DNA of 61,352 nt from a virus (IMGVR_UViG_3300032087_000329:1-61352); one strand, 5' to 3'. Shown: positions 2,827 to 46,376, counted from the stretch's first letter. Notes: generated by a model from the letters alone, not told the origin. Numbers and translations are program-made.

Positions 2827-3324
2827 TTAATCGCCTATAGCTACGTCAAAAGCTAAAACATATCTATCTATTTTAGGTATTCCTTTTTCAGCTTGATGAT
2901 ATAGCCTTGAATCAAATACATTCCAACAATTTATTTCAGGTCTAATTTTATTACTATCGAAAAACTTAGTACCAAAATTTGTTTTAGTTAAATAAGCTAT
3001 TGCTGATATGTTGTAGTTTTGACAATTATCTGCATGGTTATGCCTTATTGAGTCTATTTCTTCGCCTGCTTTATTTAAAAATACCCAACATTTTTTATGT
3101 AAAATATTTGGTCGATAGCCTAAATATTTAAATACAGTAATATCAATAGATTTATTTAGTTCTTTAAAGTTTTTATATAAAGTTCCATCAGATTGTATTC
3201 TTGCGTGTTCGCATTTTGGATAGTTTTTACAACAAGGATTGTTTTTAATAAAAGTATTAAGTTTTTTTAAGAAAATTTTATTGTTTATATTTTCTAAAAT
3301 ATCACAATAATAAGTTTCATACAT
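2827..3324 (-). CDS. Putative 2OG-Fe(II) oxygenase-fold protein
   Basis: HNH...H...RYVLAFD pattern; last gene of the oxygenase cluster. Confidence 0.55.
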   Translation of the reverse strand: MYETYYCDILENINNKIFLKKLNTFIKNNPCCKNYPKCEHARIQSDGTLYKNFKELNKSIDITVFKYLGYRPNILHKKCWVFLNKAGEEIDSIRHNHADNCQNYNISAIAYLTKTNFGTKFFDSNKIRPEINCWNVFDSRLYHQAEKGIPKIDRYVLAFDVAIGD

Positions 3325-3920
3325 TATTGTTTAAAAAAAGCTGGTAATCCTAACATGGGTCTAGTATCAAATTTATTTTGTTTAGCGTTTTTACCACTCG
3401 CATCATTGTAGTGTAAAAAAACTTGTGCACAATCTTTACCTGTAAATGGCTCACGCCAATGCTCTAAATCGCAACCACGATACATAAGCATATCGCCTGG
3501 ATTTAAGTTTACTTTAATATCAGGTTCTAAATATATTGGCCATGGATCTCCACCTAAGTTCATAGTAGTTGATATTTCGCATGAAGGTCTATCTTTGTGT
3601 CGTTTTAATTCATCACCTTTTTTATAAATTCTTGCGTACGAATAAGTTTCTATTAACGTTACACCTGCTTCTTTTTCCATAATTGGTTTAACTTTTTGTA
3701 ATAAAGTTTCCATAACTATATCTGCATAATGTGAATATGTTTCGGGTATTTGTGGATCATTCCATACACCAAAGTATTCGGTAAACTGGGATATATATTT
3801 TTCATCAAATAAATGTCTTGCCACCATTCTTTTATTTAAAAAATACTGATAACAAAAATCTGCTAATTCTTTTGATACAGCATTTTTAATTATTTGGTAT
3901 TTATCTTGTTTAAAACTCAT
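3324..3920 (-). CDS. 2OG-Fe(II) oxygenase-like protein
   Basis: YSYARIY...RHKDRPSCEIS...HWREPF. Confidence 0.75.
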   Translation of the reverse strand: MSFKQDKYQIIKNAVSKELADFCYQYFLNKRMVARHLFDEKYISQFTEYFGVWNDPQIPETYSHYADIVMETLLQKVKPIMEKEAGVTLIETYSYARIYKKGDELKRHKDRPSCEISTTMNLGGDPWPIYLEPDIKVNLNPGDMLMYRGCDLEHWREPFTGKDCAQVFLHYNDASGKNAKQNKFDTRPMLGLPAFFKQ

Positions 3921-4465
3921 AAAAAATTTGCAACTATAACTATTCTTTTTTCATCTATATCTGGACATTCTTGATAATGTTCGAGGTTGCCGTCAAACAT
4001 AATGACACTATCTTCTTTTGGATTTGAATAAAATTTTTGATTATCTTCTCCTAATACTATTGTTCTACCTTGTGAAAATTTTGTTAAATAAACTATAACG
4101 ACTTTATGGGGAAAGTTTAAATCTATATGCGGTACGCTAGATTTAACGGAACTATGTGGTGTCATGTTTATATTCATACGATACATAACTTCTATGTCAA
4201 TATTGTTAAAATCAAGTATTTCTTTCAAAATAAAATAACATTCATCAAAATAGGTAGATACTCTTTCAGGTATAGCAGGAACTTGTTTACCATAACTTTG
4301 ATGTGTTGGTCTGCCCAATAAACAATGAGCAAAAAAACCCATGTCTTCTTCATCTGTATCAGAAACAGTTTTATCAAGGTAATACCAAGGAAAGTTGTTG
4401 CTTAATACTAAATTTTTTAAATTTTTATAATTTTCTGTAACGGGATTTTTTAGTTCTGTAATCAT
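3917..4465 (-). CDS. 2OG-Fe(II) oxygenase-like protein
   Basis: PHID...FDGNLEH...KRIVIVAN (HxD...H...R). Confidence 0.65.
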   Translation of the reverse strand: MITELKNPVTENYKNLKNLVLSNNFPWYYLDKTVSDTDEEDMGFFAHCLLGRPTHQSYGKQVPAIPERVSTYFDECYFILKEILDFNNIDIEVMYRMNINMTPHSSVKSSVPHIDLNFPHKVVIVYLTKFSQGRTIVLGEDNQKFYSNPKEDSVIMFDGNLEHYQECPDIDEKRIVIVANFL

Positions 4466-5094: not shown

Positions 5095-6105
5095 TTAATT
5101 TGTCCAAGTACCAGCTTTTACAAAATCGTAAACTTCATCTAAATTCCAAACTCCTGAAGCTCCAGATACAAAATCTACTTCAGGTTCTTTAGTTATAACC
5201 ACACCAGAACCACCATTCGTGCTTGAACCACTTGGTGCAGGTGTTGCTGCTCCTGCTCCTCCAGCTCCAACAGTAATAGTATAATTTGTACCACCTACAA
5301 CAGTAAGTGTGGATTCAGCTGATGCTCCACCTCCAGAGTTTTCTCCTGGCACAGAACATCTATAACCTCCAGCTCCACCACCGCCACCAAAGTTTTGGAA
5401 GCCAGTAATACCATCTGTCCAACCGCCACCGCCACCGCCAGTATTAGCTGTACCGCTAGTGCCTGTATAACCTTGGTTGCCTCCATTTCCACCACCACCA
5501 GATCCACCAGAACCTGTTTGTAATGGAGAATTAACATAGTTGCTTGAACCACCGCCACCACCTGCTCTAGTCACGGGTGATCCTGTTATTGATGATGCGA
5601 CACCAGCACCACCGTCTCCACTTTTTCTAGGTGGTGAATTATGCGGTTGATGGTTTTGTCCTACGGCACCTGCACCGCCACCGCCACCAGAAAGGTCTGC
5701 TCCTTGATGAGCCCCTCTTGTACCAGCACCTCCATTAAAACCTTGACCAGCTGTTCCAGTACCAGTAGCGTAACGACCTCCTCCGCCACCAGAACCTCCA
5801 GGTTGTGTTCCAGGATTAGGTAGAAAATAACCTGTATCACCACCACCTCCTCCAGTTGAAGTAACAGTTGTTATAGGTGCTCCTGCTATAGAAGAGTCTC
5901 CGCCTCTTGAACCAACAGTAAATGTTGGAGCTACAGGATGACCTCCACCACCACCGCCACCTGCGATAATAAGGTATTGTAGTTCTGTTGTGTGTGTTGC
6001 TGTAGTTAAAGTACCACTAGAATTAAAAGTAGTTATTACTTCACTTTGAGTGCTTGTTGTTGGGTCATTATCTGGACCAATTATTCCACCATTACCAATT
6101 GACAT
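5095..6105 (-). CDS. Glycine-rich tail fibre/receptor-binding protein
   Basis: Many poly-Gly tracts; YLIIAGGG, GTANTGGGGG, GGSGVVI; C-terminal SGVWNL..VY; start 6105 preferred over 6123. Confidence 0.75.
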   Translation of the reverse strand: MSIGNGGIIGPDNDPTTSTQSEVITTFNSSGTLTTATHTTELQYLIIAGGGGGGGHPVAPTFTVGSRGGDSSIAGAPITTVTSTGGGGGDTGYFLPNPGTQPGGSGGGGGRYATGTGTAGQGFNGGAGTRGAHQGADLSGGGGGAGAVGQNHQPHNSPPRKSGDGGAGVASSITGSPVTRAGGGGGSSNYVNSPLQTGSGGSGGGGNGGNQGYTGTSGTANTGGGGGGWTDGITGFQNFGGGGGAGGYRCSVPGENSGGGASAESTLTVVGGTNYTITVGAGGAGAATPAPSGSSTNGGSGVVITKEPEVDFVSGASGVWNLDEVYDFVKAGTWTN

Positions 6106-11980: not shown

Positions 11981-12084
11981 AATTTTTCTCCCGAAAAATA
12001 AGTTTTACTATCTTGGCTTGTCTGCTAGGTCAGTTAGTAAAACAAGTTAATAAATCCTAGACTTTTATGATATATCACTTCTGC

Positions 12085-12114
12085 AAAAAAAGAAAGGGAG
12101 CTAAATGCTCCCTT
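12085..12114 (-). terminator. Intrinsic terminator after the major capsid gene
   Basis: 8-bp stem AAGGGAGC/GCTCCCTT followed by a T-tract on the minus strand. Confidence 0.8.
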
Positions 12115-12133
12115 CCTAAAGATCGTTTAGAAC

Positions 12134-13042
12134 TTACGCTCCAGGAGATCCGTATATGCCTCTCCAATCACTAAATCCGAAAGAATATCTTTCTCTAGCT
12201 TTGTATCGCATATTTCCTGTCTCGAAGTCGCCTTCCATGCCAGTTGACATTGCAGCTCTAACAAAATGCTTTAATCCGTTAGGAGCATCTGTTTTAATGA
12301 AGAATGCATCTGTATCTGTTAAGAAATGGTTAACTGTGTAACCGTCAGGAAGCATACTCATATTTTTAAGAGCATTAATATCATTGTCAGAAGTTCCAAC
12401 TCTGTTTGGAGTGTTTAACAATCTATCTGCAACGAACTGCAGTGCTGGTGGTACGATTAGCTTTCTAGCTTGAACGTTAGTTTTTAAACCACGCTCATCT
12501 TTAAAAGCTGCAATGTCAATCATTGCATTTTCTAAAGAAGTCTCGTTTAAATCCGCAGCAGTGCTGGGTTCGTTAGACTGATCACCAGCTGTTAAAGTTG
12601 GATGATCTGTTGTCATTAATGGTTTGCCGTCGCCTCCTGGAAAGGAAGTTGAGAAACCATTGTTTAGTACATTCGCTGCTTTCACTTGTTTCGTTTGACT
12701 CATAGAACGAGCTAACGCTTTAGTGTATCTAGCTGATATACTGTCGTACAGATTGTCTTCTATAGCTTCTTCTGTGAGAGAGAAAGCTAATGCTACGGTT
12801 TCGTGTGAATACCTAGCTGTGAAAGTTTCTTGAGCATAGTCGTAAGTGACTGCTGCACCCTCGCCTTTCACAGGAGCTTCACCGAAGCCTGATAACATAA
12901 CTTCTTCCTCAAACGCTCTGTCTGAATTTTCTGTATCAAAAATTTCAGCATGTTCGTTTTCGTATCTGCTATATTCTAATCCGAAAAGAGCATTTAATCC
13001 AGGCTCTAGTTCTGCCACTAATTGGGCTCTGTTAATTGCCAT
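12134..13042 (-). CDS. Major capsid protein (Mu gpT-like family)
   Basis: LEPGLNALFGLEY, EEAIEDNLY, KALARSM, RYKARERYSFG..DWRGIYGSPGA; followed by a strong terminator. Confidence 0.88.
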   Translation of the reverse strand: MAINRAQLVAELEPGLNALFGLEYSRYENEHAEIFDTENSDRAFEEEVMLSGFGEAPVKGEGAAVTYDYAQETFTARYSHETVALAFSLTEEAIEDNLYDSISARYTKALARSMSQTKQVKAANVLNNGFSTSFPGGDGKPLMTTDHPTLTAGDQSNEPSTAADLNETSLENAMIDIAAFKDERGLKTNVQARKLIVPPALQFVADRLLNTPNRVGTSDNDINALKNMSMLPDGYTVNHFLTDTDAFFIKTDAPNGLKHFVRAAMSTGMEGDFETGNMRYKARERYSFGFSDWRGIYGSPGA

Positions 13043-21419: not shown

Positions 21420-21567
21420 TTCGCATAAGTCGACTGCACTGCGACTTATCGCCGAACTTACCACTGTTATTTCGCATTTCTCGACTGCACTGCGACTCAT
21501 CGTCGAAAGGCAAATCGATATCTTCGGCACTTCGCATTTCTGGACTGCACTGCGACTCATCGCGAAA
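21420..21567. repeat. Three ~32-37-bp imperfect direct repeats with unique spacers
   Basis: TTCGCAT-N5-GACTGCACTGCGACTYATCG at 21420, 21471 and 21531, each followed by CGAA. Confidence 0.85.
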
Positions 21568-21584
21568 CGCCACAATGCACAAAT

Positions 21585-21611
21585 AAAAAATGGCACCTTT
21601 TTAGGTGCCAT
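21585..21611 (-). terminator. Intrinsic terminator
   Basis: TGGCACCT/AGGTGCCA stem plus T-tract on the minus strand, after ORF 21632-22024. Confidence 0.8.
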
Positions 21612-21631
21612 TGTGTGGGGGACAGTATAGT

Positions 21632-22024
21632 TTATAAAACTATACTAAATCTGTCGTTATCTTCGGTAAACGACGAACTACCTATAACAAGGACAGAAAT
21701 TAATTTAGGATTAAAAATATCTTTAATCATTCTTTTAGCAACTTTTTTACCAAGTCTAACATGTACGTGGTTAGCAGATCTATAAACTCTTTCTGCTTCG
21801 CCATTTTCGTTAAAACACTCTTCGTCATAACCACCTAAATCGGTAGAAAGTGAAACAGTGGTACATTTACGCATACCGATAACACAAATAACTTCTTCTT
21901 GTGTTAAATAGATATTATCGCTATTAGTTTCCTGCATTTCTTCAGGATTATCGCCGTATCCTTTAGGCTCCATTCTACTCTGGGTAGCCTTTTGGATCTT
22001 CTGTATTAGTTTTGCTTTATTCAT
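21632..22024 (-). CDS. Early hypothetical protein
   Basis: Has its own promoter, AAGGAG RBS and terminator. Confidence 0.7.
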   Translation of the reverse strand: MNKAKLIQKIQKATQSRMEPKGYGDNPEEMQETNSDNIYLTQEEVICVIGMRKCTTVSLSTDLGGYDEECFNENGEAERVYRSANHVHVRLGKKVAKRMIKDIFNPKLISVLVIGSSSFTEDNDRFSIVL

Positions 22025-22055
22025 TTTTTAGCTCCTTTTTAGTTAATATACAGCT

Positions 22056-22084
22056 ATCATATCACATTCTTTCATAAAAGTAAA
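22056..22084 (-). promoter_or_regulatory. Conserved phage promoter
   Basis: GTCC-TTTACT-N17-TATGAT. Confidence 0.75.
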
Positions 22085-22120
22085 GGACTTTTTAAAAAAT
22101 AATTAAATTAATTTTTACCA

Positions 22121-22158
22121 TTTCGCAGGAGTCCACTGTCCAGTGCAGAACTGCGAAA
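22121..22158 (-). repeat. Diverged inverted fourth copy of the 21420 repeat
   Basis: Reverse complement TTTCGCAGTTCTGCACTGGACAGTGGACTCCTGCGAAA aligns with unit 3; 8-bp terminal inverted repeat. Confidence 0.6.
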
Positions 22159-22176
22159 ACTACAAAAACCACACAC

Positions 22177-22202
22177 AAAAAAATGGGATCCGAAGATCCC
22201 AT
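22177..22202 (-). terminator. Intrinsic terminator (UUCG loop)
   Basis: ATGGGATC-TTCG-GATCCCAT plus T-tract on the minus strand. Confidence 0.85.
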
Positions 22203-22218
22203 AATTGTTTAAGTATTT

Positions 22219-22434
22219 TTAGCTGACACTGGCATTTTCCTCCCATTGGTCCACATAATAACTTGATTTTTTATTCATAGTTACAAGGTCGGAAATATGA
22301 ACTAACTCATGCATTTCTGCTTCTATTAATAAAATATTATCTTTTATTTCAATACTTTCTTTACACTCTTTCAAGTCGTTAGCTAAAATACTTATATTCC
22401 TAACAGCTTCTTCTATTTTTTGTATTCTTTTCAT
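22219..22434 (-). CDS. Early hypothetical protein
   Basis: RBS context AAAAGGAGCTAAAAAATG, the same as at 22024. Confidence 0.65.
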   Translation of the reverse strand: MKRIQKIEEAVRNISILANDLKECKESIEIKDNILLIEAEMHELVHISDLVTMNKKSSYYVDQWEENASVS

Positions 22435-22447
22435 TTTTTAGCTCCTT

Positions 22448-22906
22448 TTATGAAACTTTTTTTGGCTGACCGTATTTGTCGAAGCCAGTGTCGCTATAAG
22501 CAACACTAACTTCAAATTTACGCATACAATCTAAAAGTCTAACATAAACTTTTAACTTCCAATCTGCTGAAGGTTTAAGACCTAAAGCAATCATCATAGT
22601 AATTTCGTGATTAACACCAAGTTCTGTTCTGAAATAAGGGTTAGACGAAACTTTACTAGGAACTTCGTTATAGTTAGATAAATTACCACTAGCATAACGT
22701 TCCATAATTTCTAAATAAGCAAGTAAATAACCATAAGCCTCGTTAAGGTTATTTTCACTTACTTTAGTCACGGCATCGTCTAGTTGTTCTAACATTGCTT
22801 TACCTACATATTTAGGTAAGTAGTTAGAAGACATATAAGATTTTACCATTCTTTTAGACTCTTGGATAGCTCTTATTACGCTGGTTAAAGTATATTTAGT
22901 TTTCAT
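22448..22906 (-). CDS. Early hypothetical protein
   Basis: AAGGAG RBS with a promoter upstream. Confidence 0.7.
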   Translation of the reverse strand: MKTKYTLTSVIRAIQESKRMVKSYMSSNYLPKYVGKAMLEQLDDAVTKVSENNLNEAYGYLLAYLEIMERYASGNLSNYNEVPSKVSSNPYFRTELGVNHEITMMIALGLKPSADWKLKVYVRLLDCMRKFEVSVAYSDTGFDKYGQPKKVS

Positions 22907-22936
22907 ATTTTTCTCCTTTAGTTAAATACAAGACTC

Positions 22937-22965
22937 ATTCTATCTCATGTTTCTAAAAAAGTAAA
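22937..22965 (-). promoter_or_regulatory. Conserved phage promoter
   Basis: CTCC-TTTACT-N17-TAGAAT. Confidence 0.75.
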
Positions 22966-23003
22966 GGAGTTTTTTAAAAAAAGTTAAATTATTTTTATTA
23001 AAT

Positions 23004-23164
23004 GTGGACAGCTTGGGAACAAAAGTATATGAAAACTCTTTTTCAAGCTGTCCACGATGAGTGTGTTAAACGAGATTTAGGAGGACAGGAAATAGGTCTC
23101 GTTCAACTTTACTAATAGCGGAGCACCACTCACAGTGCTCACTGGTATTAACCCTATTCCTGTC
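23004..23164 (-). ncRNA. Candidate structured RNA (double pseudoknot plus hairpin)
   Basis: Five complementary segments in 160 nt, two of them crossing; see findings. Confidence 0.5.
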
Positions 23165-23170
23165 TGAAAC

Positions 23171-23422
23171 TTAATTTTGTTTCATTAAATAAAATTTTGC
23201 TGCTAACGACAAGCAATCTATGTTTGCGTCAGCAATATTTTGTACATCTTCTCTTTTACAATAAGAAAAAGATAAATGCAATTTGTCACGTTCTTCTTTC
23301 GGAAGATCGGCTAGTCGTGTGTCTTTCCACAACGAGCGAAGGTCATCTATTTCGCTAGTTTGTTTTTCTTCTTGCTGTATTTGAAGTTCACCATTAGATA
23401 TATTATGTGTAAATTTTTTCAT
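23171..23422 (-). CDS. Early hypothetical protein
   Basis: AGGAG RBS and its own promoter. Confidence 0.7.
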   Translation of the reverse strand: MKKFTHNISNGELQIQQEEKQTSEIDDLRSLWKDTRLADLPKEERDKLHLSFSYCKREDVQNIADANIDCLSLAAKFYLMKQN

Positions 23423-23451
23423 ATTTTCTCCTATATAATTAATATTCCATT

Positions 23452-23480
23452 ACTCTATCTCATTCTATTACAAAAGTAAA
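23452..23480 (-). promoter_or_regulatory. Conserved phage promoter
   Basis: GTCC-TTTACT-N17-TAGAGT. Confidence 0.65.
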
Positions 23481-23493
23481 GGACTTTATAAAA

Positions 23494-23966
23494 TTTGTGA
23501 CTATTGAGGTCGCTGGTGTAGTTCTCATACCTCGTTTATCTCTAACCTCTCTTTCAAGGTTTTTACAAGAGCTCATCTTATAGCCACAAAACTTAATAAT
23601 CTAACATGCTTTATAGGACAGGTAGCCACATAGTTTGTTTCAAAACATTAACAAAGTTGTACACCTTTGCACTAATCAGGCATAAAGTTCAGGAACTAGT
23701 CGTCTACTTTATGCACCTTTTCAGGCTACTCTTACGACTAACAACGTTCTGCATATTGTTGCGTTTGTAAAAATAAATCTGCCCTATAAAGCATGTTAGA
23801 TATGGCAAGAGTTGTTAACATGTCTGATTTAAGCTACCACGTGAATCTTGTAGCTACCATAATTTAGCTATAACTTACGAAGAGGCTAGAAGCGTCATAT
23901 GGACTTAACTCCGTAAGAGTGTAGTTATCTTTAAGTTTTTTGTCGTTTAACTACCAAGCCGACAAT
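23494..23966 (-). ncRNA. Candidate ~470-nt structured non-coding RNA
   Basis: Directly behind a conserved promoter, no ORF of 60 aa or more contained within it, a 23-bp long-range stem and several nested stems. Confidence 0.55.
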
Positions 23967-23972
23967 AAAGAC

Positions 23973-24001
23973 ATTGTATCTCATGTTTTTAAAAAAGTAA
24001 A
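23973..24001 (-). promoter_or_regulatory. Conserved phage promoter
   Basis: GTCC-TTTACT-N17-TACAAT. Confidence 0.75.
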
Positions 24002-24049
24002 GGACTTTTTTAAATTTATTTAAAATATTTTTTAGAGTACAATATATCC

Positions 24050-24736
24050 ATGGTAGATTTACATCGAATCTATAATTATAGTCCCGATAATATAGCTCCC
24101 GAGCTTGTAAAAGCGACACAAGATTATGTGCTTGTTCCCGAAGAAAACTTTATGCCGACCGAAGAAGTTAAAGCATCGGTTTTAGATTTTATCGAAGAAC
24201 CAGCACCAGATATTATTAGTTTCCCATTTTTAACACCAGAATATTGTGCCGATCTAGTAGATTTGTGCGAAGCAATCGGAAAGTTTGGCCATAGACCAGG
24301 AGACTCTTATCCTGCTCCTGAAATGGATTTAAAAGATATATCACCTTATATAAATACAACACACATCCAAAATATCGAGAAACACATTCTACCAATCGCA
24401 TGTAGTAAATGGGCATTTCCTTTAGTTTGGTTATCATCGGCGTTTGTGGTTAAGCACAGCATGGATGGGCAGATTGGCAATCCTGGATGGCATCATGACG
24501 GTTTGGCAGACATCTCATTGTCAGTCCAACTCAACGACGACTTCGAAGATGGTGGTGTTTATTTTGAAAACCAAAAATTTGGTGCTGGTAATTTACCTGT
24601 TGGTCATGCCATTTTATTTCCCTCGCGAGTGACGCATCGCCACACGGCACTTAATATTACGCAAGGAAAAAGATATTCTTTAACTTATTGGATGAAAGGC
24701 GATATTCCAGAAGATCGATCAGCCAGAACCACGTAA
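24050..24736 (+). CDS. 2OG-Fe(II) oxygenase resembling the lysyl hydroxylase (PLOD) C-terminal domain
   Basis: AFVVKH...WHHD...LNDDFEDGG.YF...GHAILFP..THRH....TQGKRY. Confidence 0.8.
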   Translation: MVDLHRIYNYSPDNIAPELVKATQDYVLVPEENFMPTEEVKASVLDFIEEPAPDIISFPFLTPEYCADLVDLCEAIGKFGHRPGDSYPAPEMDLKDISPYINTTHIQNIEKHILPIACSKWAFPLVWLSSAFVVKHSMDGQIGNPGWHHDGLADISLSVQLNDDFEDGGVYFENQKFGAGNLPVGHAILFPSRVTHRHTALNITQGKRYSLTYWMKGDIPEDRSARTT

Positions 24737-26003: not shown

Positions 26004-26035
26004 AATTTTTCTCCTAAATAATTAATTACTCTCAT

Positions 26036-26064
26036 ATCATAATCTACTTTTTTCTAAAAGTAAA
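26036..26064 (-). promoter_or_regulatory. Conserved phage promoter
   Basis: GTCC-TTTACT-N17-TATGAT. Confidence 0.7.
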
Positions 26065-26259
26065 GGACTTTGTATCATGGTCGTAATTAGGAGTTTGCTC
26101 GTCAGGCATACCATTAGGATATTTCATAGCATGGAGATACATTTCGTAATCTTCTTTAGACAATATTTTCTCTAACTTGTTAAACGGAGTGGAGAGTGGT
26201 AAGCTATATTTTTGTTTAATATAGCTCATAATACTCCTTGGTGCGTCGTTCCTAGCCAT
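26044..26259 (-). CDS. Hypothetical protein
   Basis: Coupled ORF with GAGG RBS. Confidence 0.55.
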   Translation of the reverse strand: MARNDAPRSIMSYIKQKYSLPLSTPFNKLEKILSKEDYEMYLHAMKYPNGMPDEQTPNYDHDTKSFTFRKK

Positions 26260-26800: not shown

Positions 26801-26833
26801 AGTTTTTCTCCTTTCTTAAACTAATCTAGAATC

Positions 26834-26862
26834 AGTCTATCTTATTTCTACAATAAAGTAAA
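26834..26862 (-). promoter_or_regulatory. Conserved phage promoter
   Basis: GTCC-TTTACT-N17-TAGACT. Confidence 0.65.
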
Positions 26863-26865
26863 GGA

Positions 26866-27246
26866 CTATTTTAAAAAAGTTTCAATTAATAGTTCCCAAT
26901 CATATGGCTTTTTTAGACAAAGTTCAGGAGTCAAACGTAAACCGTCATCGGCAACTTGTCTAGCATCTTCACCTTTATATAGATATATTTCTGCTGCAGG
27001 AGTTCTAACTAGAACAAAACATTTACCACCACTCATAGATCTTTTAATTAACCATCCAACTTGTTCTGGTCGAAGACCAACTTTTTTACCAGCGTTGACA
27101 ACTTTTAATTCCACCCAAAACTCTGTTCCTTCGCAACATGCATTAAAGTCAGGAATGCCTCTACCTGTGCCTCCTGTTTCTATTCTTTGTATATGCATGT
27201 TGCTCAGGTTTTTATTTACAAGAGCCCAGAATGCACTCTCTTTCAA
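26866..27246 (-). CDS. VRR-NUC-like PD-(D/E)XK nuclease/resolvase
   Basis: QRIE...GIPD...FWVELK...LRPEQ..W. Confidence 0.8.
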   Translation of the reverse strand: MKESAFWALVNKNLSNMHIQRIETGGTGRGIPDFNACCEGTEFWVELKVVNAGKKVGLRPEQVGWLIKRSMSGGKCFVLVRTPAAEIYLYKGEDARQVADDGLRLTPELCLKKPYDWELLIETFLK

Positions 27247-37567: not shown

Positions 37568-37595
37568 TTTTTTCTCCTTTCTTAGTTAAAAGACA

Positions 37596-37624
37596 ATCAT
37601 ATCTCCTTTACTACAAAAAGTAAA
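37596..37624 (-). promoter_or_regulatory. Conserved phage promoter
   Basis: TTTACT-N17-TATGAT. Confidence 0.7.
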
Positions 37625-37632
37625 GTAGTTTA

Positions 37633-37878
37633 TTAATGTATTGTTTCGTGTCCTAAAGGCATATCTTCTAGAACTGAGTCTGTAGCGTATTGTATCACTA
37701 ACTTTATGATTTCTGGATGTAAATTTAATTTTAGTCCGATTGCTAATGCAGCCCAGATAGTTGCTAAGAGTAAAGCACCATCGTCTAAATTGTCTTCTCT
37801 TAAATCTGTAAAAACTAATGTACTTATTTGTTCTGCTAAATCTATAGCACGTTTTAGATTTAGTTCGTAAACATCCAT
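37633..37878 (-). CDS. Hypothetical protein
   Basis: Protein-like composition; downstream of the primase. Confidence 0.5.
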   Translation of the reverse strand: MDVYELNLKRAIDLAEQISTLVFTDLREDNLDDGALLLATIWAALAIGLKLNLHPEIIKLVIQYATDSVLEDMPLGHETIH

Positions 37879-45392: not shown

Positions 45393-46376
45393 TTATCTTC
45401 TCCTAAATGGGTCGAGTGTATCTATACCAAATTTCGGTGCGTCTAAAAACATTGGTTGATTACGTGGTCCACCTATAGTATCTCTAACCTTTCTATCGTT
45501 TATGTCTTGGATAAAACGTGGAGGTGTGAGTGGAGGACGTGTAACTGGAGGTGGTGTATTTATTGCTGGTGGCATCATTAAATTTTCTGGATTAAAAAAA
45601 TCTTCTGTAGGTCTTATACCTGGACCAAAGCCAAAATCTTCTAGGGGTGGTGTTGGTGGTTGAACAAAATCAAATGGTGGACGATATGGTGGGGGAACAT
45701 CAATTGGTGGAACAAACGGTGGTCTATCTATAGGTGGATCGTATGGTGGTCTATCTATAGGTGGAACAAACGGTGGATCATACGGAGGTCTATTTATAGG
45801 TGGAACAAACGGTGGATCGTATGGTGGATCGTATGGTGGATCGTATGGAGGATCATATGGTGGACGATCATATGGAGGTTTTACGTTTCCTCCTCCGCCA
45901 CCGCCAGTGCCACCACCTTCGTCACCACCACCAGTGTCACCACCAGTGCCATCATCAGTGCCACCTCCACCAGTGCCACCTCCACCAGTGTTACCTCCAC
46001 CAGTATTACCTCCACCAGTGTCATTTCCACCAGTGTCATTTCCACCAGTTCCTAACAACGAAGCAAACGCATTAGCTTGTTGATTTGCTAAATTTTGTGC
46101 AGCATCAGCTACTTCCATGTTTCTTTGCTCTTGTTGTTGTGACTGTAATCTTAGATTTGTTGGAGGTGTATACGTATTAATCAATGGTTCTATGCCTTGA
46201 GGTTGTGTAATCGGGATTCTGTAATCTCTAGGAGGCATTGGATCTTGACGATAATTATCATCTATAATTGTCACATTATCTCCTGCACCACCACCCATGT
46301 ATTGTTGATTAGATGGTGTAATAGTTCCATAATTTAATCTACCCTTAGCATTTTTAAAAAATTTTGCTATTGACAT
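45393..46376 (-). CDS. Gly/Pro-rich low-complexity protein
   Basis: GGNDT/GGGNT tandem block followed by PPYD/PPFV/RPP repeats. Confidence 0.7.
   Translation of the reverse strand: MSIAKFFKNAKGRLNYGTITPSNQQYMGGGAGDNVTIIDDNYRQDPMPPRDYRIPITQPQGIEPLINTYTPPTNLRLQSQQQEQRNMEVADAAQNLANQQANAFASLLGTGGNDTGGNDTGGGNTGGGNTGGGGTGGGGTDDGTGGDTGGGDEGGGTGGGGGGNVKPPYDRPPYDPPYDPPYDPPYDPPFVPPINRPPYDPPFVPPIDRPPYDPPIDRPPFVPPIDVPPPYRPPFDFVQPPTPPLEDFGFGPGIRPTEDFFNPENLMMPPAINTPPPVTRPPLTPPRFIQDINDRKVRDTIGGPRNQPMFLDAPKFGIDTLDPFRRR

Follow-up and report, generated by a model that had tools for sequence, protein, structure and literature searches.

In transcriptional riboswitches and attenuators, the aptamer is closed by a P1 helix whose 3' strand can also become part of an antiterminator; an intrinsic terminator follows. 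In trp-type leader-peptide attenuation, the position of the ribosome selects between alternative hairpins. The frameshift signal of the coronavirus IBV is a long-stem H-type pseudoknot with an 11-bp stem 1, in which loops of about 8 nt are tolerated, and the PeSL cassettes of T4-type phages are simple repeated stem-loops bounding shuffled small early genes. The fluoride riboswitch is a pseudoknotted example of the transcriptional riboswitches (PMC11077080). A total of 8,495 candidate structured RNAs (csRNAs) of 29-151 nt, with a mean of 67, were mined from IMG/VR (PMC10690425).

The stretch of DNA analysed here, hereafter the window, is an entire IMG/VR virus record of 61,352 bp with a rating of complete, and its DNA was detected in seawater and marine metagenomes of 11 studies. 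In an initial annotation, a compact RNA with two crossing pairings had been proposed behind a small gene on the minus strand. All of the helices noted there (P1, P2, the loop-tail pairing, S2 and the terminal hairpin), together with a CCUCCU segment, were found in their places on that strand and were confirmed by the inverted repeats I2, I8 and I14. The element, some 160 bases in all, is best explained as a conserved structured RNA of ~110 nt plus a terminal hairpin, which probably makes up the 3' UTR of an 83-aa gene on the minus strand. The features of the locus are as follows.

23451-23490, minus strand: copy of a sigma-70-type promoter upstream of the 83-aa ORF (TTTACT, 17 nt, TAGAGT; repeat families D2-D4)
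23171-23422, minus strand: 83-aa ORF, with its TAA stop at 23173-23171; the element starts 6 nt after the stop
23153-23164, minus strand: 5' strand of P1, GACAGGAAUAGG
23121-23140, minus strand: P2 hairpin, GAGCAC/GUGCUC (23140-23135 with 23126-23121), 6 bp with the 8-nt loop UGUGAGUG
23132-23127, minus strand: 5' side of the loop-tail pairing (PK), the last six bases of the P2 loop
23097-23107, minus strand: 5' strand of S2, GUUGAACGAGA, adjoining the P1 3' strand with zero linker
23084-23096, minus strand: 3' strand of P1, CCUAUUUCCUGUC, situated within the S2 loop
23076-23083, minus strand: linker L3, CUCCUAAA, with anti-Shine-Dalgarno-like letters
23065-23075, minus strand: 3' strand of S2, UCUCGUUUAAC
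23058-23063, minus strand: 3' side of the loop-tail pairing, CACUCA, one base 3' of S2
23004-23055, minus strand: terminal hairpin, a perfect 12-bp stem (23055-23044 with 23015-23004) and a 28-nt loop with an inner stem
22937-22965, minus strand: next promoter, the 3' bound of the element (TTTACT, 17 nt, TAGAAT; A/T-rich stretch ahead; consensus scan and repeat families D2-D4)
22055-22094, 22936-22975, 23451-23490, 23972-24011, 26035-26074, 26833-26872, 37595-37634 and others, minus strand: copies of the promoter family

The element resembles transcriptional riboswitches and attenuators in having a pseudoknotted fold closed by a long P1, with a hairpin directly after it (a canonical terminator in the related phage locus L120), and in the complementarity of its P1 3' strand to the 5' arm of the terminator. 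It differs from them in that it follows a coding gene instead of lying in a 5' leader, has no consistent downstream gene and no Rfam riboswitch match, and ends in the window's clade in a hairpin without a U-tract. As in trp attenuation, four segments can pair either 1:2 and 3:4 or 2:3, and a stop codon stands a few bases before segment 1; however, the ORF here encodes a conserved protein of 63-83 aa and not a short leader with regulatory codons, and P2, S2 and the loop-tail pairing have no counterpart in that system. With the IBV signal the element shares two stems of 11-12 bp, a zero linker and a 7-14-nt loop spanning stem 1, whereas it has neither a slippery site nor a conserved shifted frame, contains a second, nested loop-tail pseudoknot and belongs to a bacterial host. 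As for PeSL cassettes, the window's clade has a hairpin that, with the repeated early-type promoter after it, divides the small ORFs into cassettes ordered differently in close relatives, but the element is single-copy and its covarying pseudoknot core of ~110 nt always accompanies one ORF. The csRNAs of IMG/VR (PMC10690425) come from the same data source as the element and are similar in being phage intergenic RNAs with covariation, many of them containing terminators.

Architecture of the element and its surroundings

P1 comprises 12 bp between GACAGGAAUAGG and CCUAUUUCCUGUC with one bulged U, and S2 comprises 11 bp between GUUGAACGAGA and UCUCGUUUAAC. The strands of the two helices are separate and interleaved, S2 crossing P1, and since S2 begins on the base adjoining the end of P1, the two helices can stack as one H-type pseudoknot. 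Coexistence of P1 and S2 is compatible with their non-overlapping strands and a linker of 7-14 nt; their energies are nearly equal (-14.5 versus -12.1 to -14.4 kcal/mol). P2 is placed in the long connecting loop, where its own loop pairs with the six bases right after S2. The segment CCUCCU occupies 23084-23079 on the minus strand. In the window, the terminal hairpin is followed by AUUUAAU and not by a U-tract, and the terminator scan gives it no score. The element is present as a single copy in the window's genome.

The ORF in front of the element is maintained as an open frame in all relatives, encoding a conserved protein of 63-83 aa, and its changes are concentrated at third codon positions (7/4/23 by position between the window and L004, for example). 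It thus evolves like a gene. No Pfam or PHROG family match was obtained for the 83-aa ORF. The AlphaFold model of its protein (mean pLDDT 54) was unusable and was kept out of the fold search, and the look-alikes of the protein in the Atlas, with scores of only 0.80-0.81, were uninformative.

The large terminase of the window is 52-58% identical to those of 023Pt_psg01, DSL-LC04 and the Pelagibacter phages HTVC027P and HTVC023P, and the element-bearing phages are two clades related to HTVC023P-type pelagiphages. The genes near the element lie on the minus strand as small ORFs with a repeated sigma-70-type promoter ahead of each. At least 8 near-identical copies of this promoter, A/T-rich upstream and each heading a small-ORF cassette, are present in the window; the consensus promoter scan picks up four of the 8 repeated copies, and the copy at 23451-23490 falls slightly below its threshold. 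The promoter 3' of the element is kept in all 5 sequences of the window's clade, being confirmed by the consensus scan for the window and read as a motif in the other four. The order and content of the cassettes vary among contigs, three of which have a 97% identical terminase, and this suggests recombination at these promoters. Canonical terminators are present within 1.5 kb of the element, at 22202-22183 and 21612-21589.

Several other features of the window were recorded. Three tandem 37-nt repeats at 21420-21567, with a spacing of 51-60 nt and an 8-bp palindrome in each, sit between the terminator at 21612-21589 and the small terminase gene, and may be a packaging or protein-binding site; the segment around them (21538-21702, minus strand) was the most stable of 4,896 scanned. 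Other unusually stable folds after GC correction are at 22438-22602 (minus strand, z -3.8), which covers the end of a 152-aa ORF and its junction to the next gene, and at 12038-12602 (minus strand, z about -3.2). Long arrays of 12-15-nt and 27-39-nt repeats at 45679-46038 and 5358-5508 are CCACC-rich on the plus strand; their minus strand probably codes for a structural protein with glycine-rich or collagen-like repeats. A weak Rfam freshwater-2 match (16.2 bits versus a gathering score of 49.9) was obtained for the leader 5' of the 152-aa gene (22904-22984, minus strand) and is probably just a common ribosome-binding site with an A/T-rich leader. A mobile element was considered and rejected, as its 24-nt flanking direct repeat, D1, is A/T-rich promoter-upstream sequence and no empty site was found; the T-to-C co-change of D1 in L004 was not mirrored in L018.

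Sequencing runs were also compared with the window. No variant within 23004-23164 was present in the DNA runs X5, X7 and X9. The metatranscriptome run X20 contained 7% of the words of 21500-24500, and its contigs covered 21581-21612, 22308-22344, 22448-22538, 23585-23751 and 24442-24500, the element lying outside this coverage. One of its contigs joins 21612 to 22448 with 16 other letters between them, so that 835 bases with two cassettes are skipped; it is a natural variant without those two cassettes, seen in an RNA library.

Relatives and covariation

A protein search with the ORF led to three IMG/VR contigs, and pattern scans of metagenomes added L018 and L025, the latter equal to L004. 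The three IMG/VR contigs encode a 97% identical terminase and therefore represent the same phage lineage as the window; this identity covers those three, L018 and L025 being metagenome contigs outside that check. Scans of viral, metagenome and genome collections with 18-mer and 20-mer patterns gave L004/L010/L025, L005/L008, L006/L007 and L018 only, and two degenerate patterns gave only the same three viral contigs. The matches L009, L011-L017, L019-L024 and L026-L032 were dismissed as fortuitous similarities in coding DNA, among them three from marine group II archaea. In a profile search of 1.84 billion representative proteins, one further true relative was obtained, P0007 (63 aa), and P0008 (692 aa) was discarded as a repetitive low-complexity artefact. 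The locus of P0007 is L120, from a related phage, in which the ORF is 49% identical to that of the window, the neighbour proteins are 57-88% identical and the gene order is rearranged.

In all five further phage contigs (L004, L005, L006, L018 and L120), the element directly follows the ORF homologue. The spacer between stop and element is 6 nt in the window, L005, L006 and L018, 3 nt in L004 and 7 nt in L120. Within the window's clade, the order of ORF, element and promoter is constant and the next gene varies; ORF and RNA stay together while the flanking genes on both sides differ. The proposed link between the RNA and the 83-aa ORF was thus borne out in 6/6 sequences, one of them in a rearranged neighbourhood.

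In the close clade, consisting of five distinct sequences, 233 of the 235 pair cells are standard pairs, and 5/47 pairs are changed on both sides, P1 and S2 contributing two each and the terminal hairpin one (C-G to U-A). Slid controls in this clade gave 35-45% pairing and no doubly changed pairs. In L120, 7 bases past the stop, the same architecture is built from almost wholly different helix letters. Its P1 has 13 positions, the last six bases of its P2 loop, UUUGUG, match CACAAA one base after S2 (UGAGUG/CACUCA in the window), and its S2 is again an 11-bp helix (GAUAUAUAGGU/GCCUAUAUAUC) that adjoins the P1 3' strand with zero linker; its linker begins with the same CUCCUAAA.

The six sequences were aligned with MAFFT without regard to structure (alignment A5), and L120 was aligned almost gap-free. 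In A5, 205/210 cells pair (97.6%; P1 95.8%, S2 100%), the 6/6 loop-tail pairs are kept in every sequence, and 17/35 pairs are changed on both sides (P1 5/12, P2 3/6, loop-tail 2/6 and S2 7/11). These values were reached by 0/500 shuffles, and slid controls gave 38-47% pairing with 0-4 doubly changed pairs. In this register, L120 has three P1 cells and one P2 cell that do not count as pairs. Inspection by eye favours a shift of its inner P1 by one base and of its P2 5' strand by two, and this fitted register is excluded from the counts. As in an H-type pseudoknot, two interleaved helices were found with covariation in each of them.

Covariation in homologues had been set as a test beforehand, and compensatory changes keep each of the two crossing pairings that the initial annotation had drawn. 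This covariation shows that the element is more than a well-folding region and that its pairings, both crossing interactions among them, are under selection. The element is a real, conserved double-pseudoknot RNA tied to a small phage ORF, with a well-supported structure and a function that we infer.

The anti-Shine-Dalgarno-like segment pointed out earlier is retained as well, since the CUCCUA of linker L3 is invariant in 6/6 sequences; as these represent two independent clades only, conservation of unpaired letters says little. One reading of this segment is a trans-acting sRNA or decoy freed from the 3' UTR, which would present CUCCUA(A) on a rigid scaffold and bind the ribosome-binding sites of mRNAs or a 16S-tail factor. 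The invariance of CUCCUA in 6/6 sequences despite an almost complete change of the flanking helices would fit such an RNA, as would its position in a single-stranded linker, its complementarity to the Shine-Dalgarno sequence and its resemblance to the 3' end of 16S rRNA; 3'-UTR-derived sRNAs also usually carry a terminator like that of L120. However, complementary sites in the phage genome are not above chance (4 versus 3.3 expected for the linker, and 9 versus 7.6 for the invariant J1/2 stretch), a general anti-Shine-Dalgarno RNA would also hit the phage's own genes with their AGGAG sites, and L3 must span P1 in the pseudoknot and may be buried. We consider this reading quite unlikely.

The co-inheritance of ORF and RNA, down to 49% protein identity and across genome rearrangement, bears on a further possibility, in which the 83-aa protein would bind the RNA, so as to regulate its own expression or to form an RNA-protein module, for instance a pair of the antitoxin type. 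The protein belongs to no known family, which leaves room for RNA binding. The adjacency is equally explained by a cis element, the protein model (mean pLDDT 54) is unusable, and there are no tandem repeats, no toxin family and a gene order unlike that of type III toxin-antitoxin systems. A protein partner of this kind seems improbable, slightly more so than a trans-acting sRNA. Antitoxin RNAs of type III (ToxIN-like) systems consist of tandem direct repeats ahead of an endoribonuclease toxin gene. The initial suggestion of an antitoxin-type RNA found no support, since no tandem repeats occur in 22900-23250, the RNA is single-copy and lies 3' of the ORF, and the ORF has no toxin or other family in Pfam or PHROG.

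The distribution of the element was examined with the covariance models R1 and R2, which gave no credible match among 80 loci surrounding related terminases (872 kb and 904 kb; best 16-17.5 bits). R1 found the element in 0/2 of the whole genomes of 023Pt_psg01 and HTVC027P, a search that left out HTVC023P and DSL-LC04, and in L033 (87% terminase identity) neither the ORF nor the RNA is present in the 4.4 kb upstream of the terminase. One copy was found by R2 in each of the four relatives' records searched. By these sequence searches the family appears to be narrow, with two clades.

Strand, known families and coding potential

The minimum free energy of the minus strand is -54.1 kcal/mol, as compared with a shuffle mean of -35.2 (z = -5.08; 0/200 shuffles as good), and the plus strand also folds well (z = -3.91). 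When 4,896 segments of 165 nt were scanned on both strands, 6 of the top 25 after GC correction overlapped the element, and 5/6 of these were on the plus strand. Since the plus strand folds well too, nested energies mark the region as unusual without deciding the strand, and the minus-strand assignment comes from wobble pairs and gene direction. In the five close sequences, 14 G-U cells (in 9 columns) are present on the gene strand versus 1 A-C cell, and each of these 14 would be a C-A mismatch on the opposite strand; the U-tract of the L120 terminator lies on the same strand as the gene. The initial annotation had likewise read the single wobble of S2 as G-U on the minus strand only, and it is indeed C-A if the plus strand is taken; both the wobble asymmetry and the gene direction agree with the minus-strand RNA it proposed.

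These observations weigh on a DNA-level explanation, namely an origin, packaging or recombination site or a chance cluster of palindromes. The plus-strand z of -3.9, the 5/6 top-25 segments over the element on that strand and the AT-rich direct repeats (D1) flanking the element would be in line with such a site. The excess of G-U over A-C cells on the gene strand (14 versus 1), the covariation of the crossing helices and the strand-specific terminator of L120 are against it, and the flanking repeat is low-complexity promoter-upstream sequence; we regard a DNA site as highly improbable.

No match at gathering score to Rfam 15 was found in the whole window, and at E values up to 10 over 22850-23500 nothing meaningful appeared, with no match on the element's strand over the core, which agrees with the earlier description of an unrecognised structured RNA. 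The best Rfam match of L120 was Atu_C8 (20.6 bits versus a gathering score of 50), spanning the terminator. ARAGORN predicted 0 tRNA or tmRNA genes in the window. The element is thus unclassified with respect to Rfam 15, the IMG/VR csRNA catalogue (PMC10690425) being outside this comparison. Among the titles and abstracts listed for pelagiphages together with riboswitches or with HTVC023P, none concerned such an element.

Past the stop of the ORF, no reading frame is open in all five close sequences, and 1-nt indels are present, which indicates that the element is neither coding nor a recoding extension; the extension of L120 beyond the stop, as read from the sequence, is unrelated to that of the window. 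The possibility of a self-cleaving ribozyme or a translational recoding signal (a frameshift or read-through pseudoknot) has to be weighed here. The compact double pseudoknot begins 3-7 nt past the stop codon, a spacing typical of recoding stimulators. Against both, no Rfam ribozyme or frameshift family was matched over the window's element even at E = 10, and the ribozyme suggested initially found no counterpart in any Rfam ribozyme model (hammerhead, twister, pistol, hatchet and HDV-like). Recoding is further opposed by extensions that stop at differing lengths, with L005 stopping in the shifted frame, and by the 1-nt indels. No slippery heptamer was seen by eye before the spacer in the window sequence, and the weak flavi_FSE match of L120 (15.9 bits versus a gathering score of 43) lies at 3328-3379, over the terminator and the following stretch, outside the pseudoknot core. 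A ribozyme or recoding signal is accordingly judged very improbable.

The transcript end and the possible function

In L120, a canonical intrinsic terminator (GGCUCC-UUCG-GGAGCC-UUUUUU, with a 6-bp GC stem) begins five bases after the loop-tail pairing, and the 12-bp hairpin of the window's clade occupies the homologous position. As this hairpin carries no U-tract, although canonical terminators are nearby, we infer a terminator role in the window's clade from its position only.

In 6/6 sequences, complementarity also exists between the P1 3' strand and the region of the terminal hairpin's 5' arm, with letters that differ between the clades. In the window, CUGUCC (23088-23083, the outer part of the P1 3' strand plus the next base) can pair with GGACAG, and in L120 AGUCGGUC can pair with GACUGGCU, covering 4/6 bases of the terminator 5' arm. 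The alternative duplex, found post hoc, has an energy of -10.1 to -13.1 kcal/mol versus shuffle means of -5.0 to -7.0, and the fraction of 500 shuffles as good is 0.008-0.056. Because this pairing crosses S2, nested folding cannot evaluate it, and it was absent from nested folds in which the first 12-20 nt were masked.

Taken with the terminator of L120, this alternative pairing suggests a switch that would act in cis on the formation of the transcript end. It is nearly an even call, leaning slightly against, whether the element is such a conformational switch on terminator or 3'-end formation, located in the 3' UTR of the 83-aa gene. It would act in cis, controlling the formation of the terminal hairpin: with P1 formed, the hairpin would form and the transcript would end or gain a protected 3' end, and with P1 prevented, its 3' strand would capture the hairpin's 5' arm and RNA polymerase would continue. 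The simplest trigger would be a ribosome terminating 3-7 nt before P1, which would cover or open its outer pairs; binding of the pseudoknot by the 83-aa protein or by a small ligand would be another possible trigger. Since all six sequences have the stop 3-7 nt ahead of P1, the ribosome would affect the outer pairs that the alternative pairing needs, and coupling to translation of the ORF is favoured.

Some findings count against the switch. The alternative pairing has only 6-8 bp as against the 12-bp hairpin stem in the window's clade, and from the usual ribosome footprint a terminating ribosome is estimated to reach only the outer 2-7 bases of P1. No regulated gene downstream in the same direction is consistent among the window, L004, L005, L006 and L018; the downstream gene in the window's clade has its own promoter, and in L120 only a convergent 2OG oxygenase follows.

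In L120, the end of the ORF-RNA unit (3317-3338) is head-to-head with the 2OG-Fe(II) oxygenase gene at 3392-4078, whose product is 88% identical to that of 24050-24736 in the window, and read-through of the terminator would give antisense RNA to this gene.

A simpler explanation is a passive 3'-end module, in which the pseudoknots and the hairpin end the transcript, block 3'-to-5' exonucleases, or both, and so stabilise the mRNA without any switching. The element stands at the 3' end of the ORF in 6/6 sequences, with a canonical terminator in L120; its long stacked helices would be a strong roadblock, and the hairpin-plus-promoter arrangement bounds shuffled gene cassettes, all of which a passive module would account for. 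Yet a plain terminator or hairpin suffices elsewhere in the genome, four covarying pairings and an invariant CUCCUA over ~110 nt far exceed the need, and it is left unexplained why the P1 3' strand is complementary to the hairpin. This explanation is considered unlikely, less so than a trans-acting sRNA.

Returning to the cis-acting switch, its most far-reaching form would be a new class of regulatory RNA, namely a double-pseudoknot sensor at the end of a gene, which would read the ribosome at the stop codon or a ligand and decide on termination at the hairpin, with the invariant CUCCUAA, a look-alike of the 16S tail, as part of the sensing surface. We hold this form to be doubtful. If true, such a sensor would make early-gene read-through depend on the translational state of the host, which may lose its ribosomes during infection. 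Ribosome-deprived infected SAR11 cells are reported in PMC11066056.

The element matches no riboswitch, ribozyme or viral recoding family in Rfam. To our knowledge, two interlocked covarying pseudoknots are rare outside these three kinds of RNA. Even if passive, the element is a small and well-defined RNA fold that lends itself to structural studies. Should it be a switch through which a ribosome or a ligand controls transcript-end formation, it would be a new, compact design for regulation at a gene's 3' end. We know of almost nothing on early-gene control in the phages of streamlined ocean bacteria, and such a switch, if true, would give a handle on it.
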